DNA from: Callorhinchus milii | Taxonomy: Eukaryota | Direction of reading: 5' to 3' | Length of the DNA stretch: 64,000 bases | Assembly (NCBI RefSeq): GCF_018977255.1 | Contig: NW_024704743.1 | Location: 19,036,001-19,100,000 of the forward strand | Part shown: positions 55,001 to 58,000 of the stretch, piece by piece | Position numbering within the stretch: position 1 is the first letter of the stretch | Layout of the letters: each line of letters opens with the position of its first letter | Made by a program: the position numbers and the translations under genes | Notes under the pieces: model-generated | The model's input: only the letters and a program-made list of their open reading frames with translations | Told to the model about the DNA's origin: nothing | The model's database searches: none

Positions 55001-58000
55001 TTTTACTTCTACTGACATATGTGGGAATGTCATCTAAGCCAGGGGCCTTGCATATTTTACAGGGGTTTCCAAAGATTAAAGGCTGCTTACTTCAACTGTG
55101 CTTTCCATGCAGTGGTGGCGGTGTAGGTACAGTGCTTTTATGGCTCGATTGTCTGAAACCAGATCAAATTAAAAGCTTATTAAATGACAGGATCCATCTT
55201 AAATTAGGATATGAAGATGCTTCTTAATACCTCCTTCATCTTTCTTTTGGGAATGCCCACTTGATAATCCAAAATAACTCTTTCATTCGAAACTTTTTAG
55301 CGCAATAACTTTGACTTTTCATTTCAATGATAAAAGTTACAATAGTAATAACTTACACTTGCAAAGTGCCTTTCTCAAAGGGAAACTTCTCAAAGTTCTT
55401 TATAGATGGAATGAAAGCCAAAGCATGGTGGGAGGAGGGGGAGAGGTAGCAGGGAAGTAGCCAATGTTGCAGTCCAATAAATAGTTTTTAGAAAGATTTT
55501 GAAAGCAGAATGGGGGATATGAAGTACAGAGATTTAGGGAGACAGTTGCAGAGAACAAGGACAGAATAACTAAGCTTTCCTAATAATGGAGGGTCAACAA
55601 CAACAAAATTACATTTGCATAGTGCCTTTCACATTGAGAGGACATCCCAAGGTGCTGGACAGTCAGAGTTTCGGACCTGAGCTGGGTGTCGGGAATGGGG
55701 AAGGTGGGGTGCGGGGGGGGAAGCAGGGTGATAGAAAGCATGGTCAAAGAGGAGGGTCTTGAGATGGGTCTTGAAGGAGGCAAGAGAGCGGCTGTGGTGG
55801 AGGGACTGGGGGATGGAGTTCCAGAGGGTGGGGGCAGTGTGGCAGAAAGTCCACCTGCCAATAGTGGCAAGCGAGGCGGGGGACGTGAAGCAGGCTGGAT
55901 GGTAGGAGGTTAGGAGGTCACAGAGGTAGAGGGGAGCAAGACCATGGAGGGCCTTGAAGGTGAGGACCAGGATCTTGAACTGTATCCTCTGTGCGATGGG
56001 AAGTTAATGGAGTCAGGTGAGAATGGGGTTGATAGGCTCTTGGAGCCTGGTGCAGGAGAGGACATAGGCTGCAGAGTTCTGGATGATCTGCAGCCTATGA
56101 AGGGAGGAGTTGGGGAGGCCGACAAACAAGGAGTTTGTATACTCAAGCCTCAATGTAATGGAAGCGTGATTGAGGGTTTCGGTGGCCTGCGATGTGAAGC
56201 GAAGCTGGGCGATGTTGCGGAGGTGGAGGAAGGCAGAGCGGGTCATGGCACAGATGAGGGATAGAAAGGATAGTTGAGGGTCAAACAAGACGCCAAGGTT
56301 CTGGACTCGCTTAGTAAGGTGGAGTGTGCAGCCATGGCTGGTGATGCTGTTAGCGCCTGAGGTGGAGGCACTGACTAGGAGTCAATCAAGAGAACATATC
56401 ATTAGCGCTCATCCAGGACTTGATGTCTGACAGACATTGTGTCAGGACAGCAATGGTCCTGGAGTCAGGGGCAGAGGCAGAGTGAGTTGACCCCATGTCT
56501 GCAGATGATGTCACCAAGAAGGAGCATATAGATATTGAAAAGGAGGGGACCAAGAACAGAGCCCTGAGGAACGCTGCACAAAATGGTGCGGGGGCTAGAG
56601 GAGAAATCATTTGTGGAGATGTAGTGCTGTGAGAGGTACTATCTGAACCAGTCAAGGACAGAGGTGAAAGGAGAGGCAATGGATGAAGATAGAGCGGTCG
56701 ACAGTGTTCGAAGGCAGCAGAGAGGTCAAGGATAACGATGAGGCAGAAGAAGCCCTGGTCGCTGATGAATAGAATATTATTTGTCACTTTGACTAGGGCT
56801 GTTACTGTGCTGTGGGCAGTATGGTAACCCGATTGGAGGGTTTCATGAAAGGCGTGGCGGGAGAGGAAGGAGAGAAGCTGGGAAGCAACAACTTATTCCA
56901 GGACCTTGGAGAGGAAAGGGAGGTTGGAGATGGGGCAGTAGTTTGAGACATGAAGCATGCCTGAATTTATGGAGAAGGAAGAGGCAGGCAAGGGAATGGG
57001 ACCAGAGGAGAACAGCAGTAAGCTGGGGCAAGGTCATAGACGCATTTGAAGGCTAGAATGATAAGTGAATCCATTAGAGAATACGGGAGTCAATGGAGCC
57101 TGGTGAGAATGGGGATAATATGTTTGTGGAGCCTGGTAAACTATAAAATGAAAGACTAAAATTTGCCACTTATCAATAACTACAGATATGAAACGTTCCT
57201 AAGCATGAAATGGAAAGGAACATATTTGAACTTTTGACCACACAGAATACAGATATTGTCTTTAAAAAGCAACCAAAACATTTCTAAAGCACCCTTCATG
57301 CGGGGAAGAATGTTCGAAGGGTGAGAGCATTTTAGGTTTCAATTTGGGATGTCCTCCCGATGTGAAAGGCACTATATGAATGCAGTGTGTTGTTGTTGTT
57401 GTCAAACAATACGCCTTTTAAAAAACTTTCTGAATTTTGACAGGAAATGTTCGACGTGATTCTGGATGAAAATCAGCTGGAAGATGCCTGTGAACACCTA
57501 TCTGACTACCTGGAAGCTTACTGGAGGGCTACACATCCCCCGAGCAGCAACCCTCCCAACCCTCTCCTCAGCCGCACACTTGCAACTGCAGCCCTTCCCA
57601 CAAGCCCAGCGCCAGTCTCCAATTTACAGGTACATGTTCTTACTTCTCTCCAACCCAACCTTTATTTCTGGGACACAGAGGAAGAAGGACAAAGGAAGAC
57701 AGAGATTCAGAACAATCAGATCATGCTGGAGATGGAAACATTTGATTACCTCTCAACTTCAGGATAGCATCTGAGACAATACCCCTAGGTTTCTTTGCCT
57801 ACATGTTTATAACAGGCTGGAGCTTTGCATGAGAACATCACTTAACCCTGTTTGTGGTAACTGTGATTAATCATCAAAGTAAACCCAATAAATAGCTGTT
57901 GAGTGCTTAAGGCAGAGGGCCACTGGCCTTTAAAGGACTAACAGAGAGAGGGGGGGAGGCAGGGCAAAGAAGACAAAGGAGAAAGTGGAGTAGAGGACGG

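Follow-up and report, generated by a model that had tools for sequence, protein, structure and literature searches.

The question raised by this locus is whether a CaV beta-subunit gene other than CACNB1 carries a second, beta1a-like C-terminus in Callorhinchus milii, and if so, how old that ending is and what it might do. The window, to which all positions refer unless stated, is the whole 64,000-nucleotide stretch analyzed (contig NW_024704743.1, 19,036,001 to 19,100,000, forward strand). On the plus strand, motif and tblastn scans located a complete gene for a CaV beta subunit, which begins with an alternative first exon at 10014 and ends with a stop at 60456. The gene spans more than 46 kb, the 12 internal exons used are all bordered by AG/GT, and four spliced forms are free of internal stops. 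The first-pass annotation named the gene CACNB2, and both the last exon and a tree of the protein core agree. Exon 14, which encodes the usual long C-terminus (59965–60456, plus strand, placed by its borders), matches human beta2c at 222.8 bits and beta1 at 36.5 bits. The unrooted core tree was built from 326 SH3/GK columns and 21 rows; the HOOK and tail columns were left out, and P0011 was dropped for a missing motif. The branch separating beta1 has support of 100/100, the branch separating beta3 plus beta4 has 99/99, and the window lies outside both. Its nearest rows are beta2, and beta2 is monophyletic in 50% of the bootstrap trees.

Searches of the animal's own genome covered 991.5 Mb and found a separate CACNB1 locus with its own tail on contig C23; in core and tail it agrees exactly with the Callorhinchus milii record XP_042199233. 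Because exon 13 in the window looks closer to beta1 than mammalian beta2 does, a misnamed CACNB1 was considered, and it was ruled out by the last-exon scores, the separate CACNB1 locus, and the core tree. The tailed protein is not the beta1a subunit proper, since CACNB1 is a distinct locus. Contigs C6 and C27 hold what we take, by resemblance, to be beta4-like and beta3-like genes, respectively. A fifth CACNB-like locus lies at C530:34061–34261 plus about 37760–38220. Its exon 13 has a one-base frameshift, either real or an assembly error, and an RQDTFD motif of the beta1/beta2 type occurs in its Gln-rich last exon. Reading through its exon 13 gives no beta1a-like sequence and no tail, and the preceding 20 kb contain no upstream exons. 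About 22 kb past exon 14 of the window gene, on the minus strand (L040, ~8800–9030), an RNA-methyltransferase-like exon with a DAPCSG motif was recognized by eye. It is presumably NSUN6, the downstream opposite-strand neighbor of CACNB2.

Exon 13 (57444–57629, plus strand) has AG/GT borders and an open spliced frame, and it aligns to beta1 and beta2 PDB chains. Its 62 codons encode the end of the GK domain and the proximal C-terminus, including a proline-rich stretch. The donor CAG/GTACAT (57627–57635, plus strand, phase 0) has its GT at 57630–57631 and is either spliced to exon 14 or read through as Val-His. When the donor is ignored the frame stays open for 45 codons (57630–57764) to a TAG at 57765–57767, and an AATAAA follows at 57887–57892, 119 nt after the stop, just as the first-pass annotation described. 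This hexamer (plus strand) is a candidate poly(A) signal for the short isoform, proposed from sequence alone; from the donor to exon 14 there is one other A(A/T)TAAA, an ATTAAA at 59588. An open 45-codon frame follows 228 of 1827 GTR sites and AATAAA occurs in 6.5% of 130-nt windows; both are common by chance, so neither counts as evidence by itself. The donor had been described as weak, which is not clearly so: it has 7 of 9 U1 matches by a crude count, the other 11 donors of the gene have 5 to 8, and it is therefore ordinary for CACNB2. A search of sequencing runs with 57444–57920 listed 13 runs and no RNA holder, and it was not counted as evidence. In the animal's own CACNB1, the 1.46 kb past the read-through stop contain neither AATAAA nor ATTAAA, and the first ones lie about 1.9–2.1 kb downstream, still before the last exon. 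A nearby poly(A) hexamer is thus not common to both paralogues.

The 45-residue tail belongs to no Pfam family and divides into three parts, all on the plus strand. Residues 1–14 (57630–57671) form a beta1a-like core that corresponds to beta1a 490–503. Residues 15–30 (57672–57719), delimited by pairwise alignments, form an acidic, variable linker that differs from the elasmobranch tails by a frame-keeping one-codon indel. Residues 31–45 with the TAG (57720–57767) form a beta2-specific end motif, I-x-L-E-M-x-x-F-x-Y-L-x-x-S-G-stop, that is absent from beta1a. The end motif has an acidic-F-x-x-L pattern, which to our eye resembles short linear binding motifs such as LC3-interacting regions.

Rabbit beta1a (PDB 6jp5/6jpa) aligns with the window without gaps over residues 1–84. 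The six beta1a residues singled out by the first-pass annotation (L478, V485, V492, L496, L500, and W503) are indeed matched in register by L, V, V, L, L, and W, encoded at 57594, 57615, 57636, 57648, 57660, and 57669. Ten of the 14 core residues are identical to human beta1a, and the tail ranks first of 7024 GT read-throughs in the window against a beta1 profile. The profile holds 25 distinct beta1-type 14-mers, with the two donor-fixed codons left out; of 149 proteins, 11 were dropped (no read-through tail, unrelated, or anchor motif missing) and 10 were scored as beta2. Over positions 3–14 the tail scores 39.9, compared to a null mean of −13.4 (sd 7.2) and a next best of 18.5, and it falls within the 28.4–52.4 range of beta1 tails. 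The read-throughs of the animal's own beta4 and beta3 genes, which have no tail, score −7.0 and −10.9. CACNB1 had been said to make its tail by read-through at the matching position, and the own CACNB1 does have a donor, CAG/GTACAG, at the same codon.

The likeness is confined to the core. From residue 15 on, the tail shares 2 identities in 34 columns with mammalian beta1a, and both the basic residues at positions 8–9 and the beta1-type end are absent from it. The first-pass annotation stated that Arg-Arg is replaced by Gln-Pro. The Gln-Pro is there, but the contrast was overstated: the animal's own beta1 tail reads Gln-Arg there, which leaves the Pro as the one distinctive change. Pro at position 9 occurs in none of the 25 beta1 14-mers, and it may disrupt a helix. 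These alignments show homology of the CACNB2 tail to the beta1a distal C-terminus.

Comparison with the own CACNB1 indicates how the tail has been maintained. Over codons 3–14, 8 of 9 silent sites and 4 of 27 replacement sites differ (pS 0.89, pN 0.15; Fisher p 1.3e-4), and over exon 13 pS is 0.82 and pN is 0.07. Silent sites are saturated while pN is low, which shows protein-level selection and no recent conversion.

The best two of 4077 matches to exon 13 plus tail are beta2-named isoforms from Pristiophorus (84%) and Narcine (79%), which align over all 107 residues. Two more proteins with this tail, Amblyraja XP_032871219 and an unnamed Logan protein, came from a look-up of the cluster. Four of the five chondrichthyan beta2 proteins fetched have the tail, the exception being Hypanus X9. 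The Hypanus protein XP_059828135 (P0123) shows a third CACNB2 ending, in which exon 13 is followed by an unrelated 11-residue tail. Identity to the window tail is 30/45 in the sawshark, 27/45 in the electric ray, and 25/45 in the skate, with the one-codon indel and the same stop. In the end motif, 9 of 15 positions are invariant among five chondrichthyan-type sequences in the same stop register. Frameshifts or stops in related species would have told against the first-pass proposal; in chimaera, sawshark, skate, and electric ray the frame is open to a shared stop and the indel preserves it. The divergence of chimaeras from sharks dates back roughly 400 million years. The Logan protein is a whole 486-residue product on a 2983-nt contig, and because the gene exceeds 46 kb it should be the spliced transcript of a relative. 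This contig is the sole transcript-level support, and it comes from that relative rather than from Callorhinchus.

Outside the cartilaginous fishes, sturgeon MGH0121480 and bowfin MBN3307356 beta2 keep the tail core, scoring 41.5 and 26.7, respectively. Each is identical to human beta1a at 10 of 14 positions, although the bowfin core lacks the Trp, and both records are gene models that continue into exon 14. Graded traces of the tail appear in the exon 13 read-throughs of three unnamed Logan fragments that are beta2-like (P0144, P0146, and P0148); P0144 has an exon 13 near that of human beta2, yet keeps Val1, Val3, and Trp14. Their scores of 8.9, 4.9, and 0.5 are reached by 17, 68, and 263 of the 7024 null read-throughs. 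The fragments were chosen post hoc and are treated as hints of erosion only, a possible record of tail decay.

Three further searches looked for additional beta2 tails in bony fishes or tetrapods. In the first, 2 of 30 candidates matched, the query and bowfin. The second gave 10 of 24, the query and nine amphibian proteins (eight named beta1 and one hypothetical). The third gave 20 matches that were mostly beta1-type, with the three beta2-like fragments and two unrelated repetitive proteins. No named tailed beta2 from coelacanth, lungfish, bichir, gar, teleost, tetrapod, or cyclostome is among these three lists or the best 120 of the 4077 matches; because the lists rest on annotation and short words, this does not demonstrate absence. 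The last 54 residues used as a query against the own genome returned only the window and one match at E 2.5, and since this search missed the known beta1 tail it is insensitive. A protein from Eudyptes filholi named beta-4 (P0119) has a beta1-type exon 13 and tail and is probably misnamed.

The short C-terminus would be attached to an otherwise ordinary beta2. The gene has the long HOOK exon 7A (39866–39999, plus strand) and the short exon 7B (40145–40164, plus strand), and all 4 full-length database beta2 proteins with the tail at their C-terminus include exon 7A. The alternative first exon (10014–10082, plus strand) encodes 23 residues, matches the sturgeon beta2 N-terminus at 100%, and is followed by a GT. 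It is basic and likely membrane-binding, and we take it to be of the beta2e type. With it, the 470 or 432 residues counted from the GSADS exon give the ~493 (7A) and ~455 (7B) residues that the first-pass annotation had calculated; other first exons change the length. Three of the 4 full-length tailed proteins have one common short N-terminus that, to our eye, resembles beta2b. Read-through loses all of exon 14, as had been proposed, and with it the RQETFD motif at 60124–60141 and the RxRxxS motif at 60346–60363, presumably the CaMKII and Akt sites. The Akt site is placed in the beta2 C-terminal region in the available text of PMC2699149. An AlphaFold2 model of the sawshark isoform P0002 from 38 sequences has a mean pLDDT of 36.5 and is uninformative even for the core; its helices at 440–457 and 465–478 have that low pLDDT and were not counted.

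An origin of the tail in the beta1/beta2 ancestor, together with its being a real coding isoform, is highly probable on these comparisons. That the tail predates the beta1/beta2 duplication, as first suggested, is well supported as the simplest reading of the homology, selection, and distribution. The tailless fifth CACNB-like locus and the different Hypanus ending weigh against this reading. The tailed paralogues form one side of the 99/99 branch; in an unrooted tree, this is compatible either with the tail having arisen once, in the beta1/beta2 ancestor, or with beta3/beta4 having lost it. The beta1/beta2 split is taken to have followed the divergence of the cyclostomes. The ancestral gene would have had two endings, made by splicing exon 13 to exon 14 or by reading through and finishing in intron 13. 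Both genes would have retained both endings after duplication, and CACNB1 still makes the short one as beta1a/1c. The CACNB2 short end would have been held by selection in cartilaginous fishes, kept as a core in sturgeon and bowfin, and eroded elsewhere, and the 15-residue end motif would have been added or preserved in CACNB2. In the chimaera the donor would compete with read-through, and the short transcript would be polyadenylated after 57892. Its product would be a normal SH3-HOOK-GK beta2 that binds CaV alpha1 as usual, with the exon 14 phosphorylation tail exchanged for a short, probably helical one.

The likeliest job for such a protein would be that of a striated-muscle-type isoform, with exon 7A plus tail in the beta1a layout, at about even odds against a neuronal or sensory one. 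Exon 7A in 4 of 4 and a beta2b-like N-terminus in 3 of 4 tailed proteins lean toward striated muscle. A striated-type isoform might alter channel clustering at membrane junctions and escape the kinase control exerted through exon 14, and it would work beside beta1a without replacing it. We judge a muscle role of some kind to have slightly less than an even chance. The own CACNB1 is intact, with exon 7A and tail, which counts against a muscle role in which beta2 is needed. In some beta1 proteins (P0007, P0013, P0112, and P0116) the tail accompanies the short exon 7B, so the tail alone is no skeletal-muscle marker. These 7B forms were counted against a muscle role along with Pro9 and the finding that beta3, without this tail, forms tetrads (reported in the text drawn on from PMC9171810).

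The first-pass annotation had read the six conserved residues as the sign of an excitation–contraction (EC) coupling tail, and this was not borne out. In beta1-null zebrafish, beta1a with the heptad LVV mutated to AAA is reported to give full tetrads and almost full EC coupling (PMC2896708), and LLW-to-AAA in full-length beta1a is reported to be without effect on rescue (PMC9171810). The heptad and the LLW triplet are dispensable there, so keeping the six residues does not show an EC-coupling role. The distal tail taken whole is nevertheless the pertinent region: beta1a 490–524, placed by itself on beta4, restores Ca transients, most of the motility, and roughly half of the tetrads (PMC9171810). 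Tetrads are recorded in hagfish, lamprey, and gar (PMC2171569), which makes skeletal coupling old enough for an ancestral tail. A working part for the tailed beta2 in skeletal EC coupling is unlikely. It is only marginally less doubtful that a cartilaginous-fish beta2 isoform organizes CaV1.1 tetrads and couples to RyR1, beta2 having lost such coupling only afterwards, by losing the tail.

Among the alternatives, the one that survives best is use outside skeletal muscle, with a beta2 that lacks exon 14 tuning CaV1.2/1.3 in heart, neurons, hair cells, or electroreceptors. The beta1a likeness would then be history and the beta2-specific end motif would carry the function; this is a substantial possibility, though short of an even chance. 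The nine invariant positions in the last 15 residues fit it, and the best-kept tails occur in electroreceptive groups, but bowfin is not electroreceptive and yet keeps the tail core. Expression reports point both ways in the passages available. Paddlefish ampullary organs express Cacnb2 (PMC5429088) and beta2b is called the main cardiac form (PMC9931737), whereas skate ampullae are reported to favor Cacnb1 (PMC5429088), Cacnb2 is absent from sawfish rostral skin (PMC11057056), and catshark cacnb2 is not ampulla-specific (PMC11979771). The two CACNB2 3′ ends are not told apart in any of these passages.

A stronger form of the muscle-type isoform is that the tailed beta2 of some skeletal fibers or electric organ supports CaV1.1 tetrads and RyR1 coupling in full, which would give cartilaginous fishes a second beta subunit for EC coupling. 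Residues 1–10 of the tail are reported to be completely identical among the vertebrate beta1a sequences compared in PMC9171810, and the window matches the human tail at 7 of these 10. Beta2a is reported to support charge movement and to lack only tetrads (PMC9171810). The pairing of exon 7A with the tail in every full-length record also fits a full substitute. Against it stand the intact beta1a, the change of the basic pair to Gln-Pro, and the exchange of the beta1a end (EEHA-hydrophobic in most beta1 tails compared) for another motif, which together leave this stronger form unlikely.

An old gene conversion or exon transfer that carried the exon 13 end and tail from CACNB1 to CACNB2 after the duplication might explain why exon 13 plus tail scores 138 bits against beta1 and 100 bits against mammalian beta2. 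However, this gap arises because mammalian beta2 has diverged, silent sites are saturated alike in exon 13 and in the tail, and tail cores in both cartilaginous and ray-finned beta2 make any transfer older than their split, so such an event is very improbable. Least probable of all is a vestige or annotation artifact, an intron-retention product conserved only as splice-regulatory DNA: the RefSeq X isoforms are predicted models, chance often yields open frames and AATAAA, and zebrafish 3′ RACE is reported to give one variant per beta2 gene (PMC2365960), but residues are kept while silent changes saturate, the indel keeps a frame whose stop is common to chimaera and elasmobranchs, and a spliced contig encodes the whole isoform.

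The preferred reading, an ancestral tail kept in CACNB2 and possibly used in striated muscle, has consequences that can be tested. The beta1a distal C-terminus is described as non-conserved, exclusive to beta1a, and needed for tetrads (PMC2896708, PMC9171810). If the reading is correct, the ancestral beta1/2 gene already possessed an element that has been considered peculiar to beta1a; this element is dated to before the beta1/beta2 split and survives in two paralogues. A paralogous copy under selection would show which residues evolution holds fixed and would supply natural variants for the zebrafish rescue assay. If the tailed beta2 did organize tetrads, natural beta2 tails, with ~10 core residues and an unrelated distal part, would delimit the smallest determinant of tetrad formation, which alanine mutants have not revealed. 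The whole distal tail gave beta4 tetrads, so the idea is directly testable with the beta2 tail; a tail that failed in muscle would make the end motif point to another partner. There would also be a beta2 form without exon 14, a region that the mammalian literature, as far as the accessible text goes, treats as constant.

No title or abstract in the literature searched describes a beta1a-like beta2 tail; that literature excluded most subscription papers and supplements, and the supplementary alignment of PMC9171810 may bear on the point. The accessible passages of PMC13751737 and PMC9931737 contain no mention of such an isoform, and bioRxiv 10.1101/274449 concerns potassium-channel beta subunits and has no bearing. 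The isoform itself has database precedents. Amblyraja XP_032871219 X5, Narcine XP_069770764 X4, and Pristiophorus UPI00398F0E79 X4 (RefSeq/UniRef) have the orthologous tail with the same stop, as automatic, unremarked predictions that the literature searched does not link to beta1a or to a function. Mammalian and zebrafish CACNB2 (beta2a–e) share the SH3-HOOK-GK core, exons 7A/7B, and exon 14 with the window gene. The described variants differ at the N-terminus and HOOK, whereas the window CACNB2 has a second, short C-terminus. The C-terminal region is said to be present in all beta2 splice forms (PMC2699149, as available), and the zebrafish 3′ RACE text consulted reports no C-terminal splicing of beta2 (PMC2365960). 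The closest known system is the CACNB1 beta1a/1c distal C-terminus (rabbit 490–524), which likewise arises when the phase-0 donor is read through and begins at the matching codon, with L496, L500, W503, and the heptad in register and 10 of the first 14 residues identical in human. The CACNB2 tail differs in its length of 45 residues (33–41 in the six beta1 tails compared), in Pro9, and in its beta2-specific end motif.
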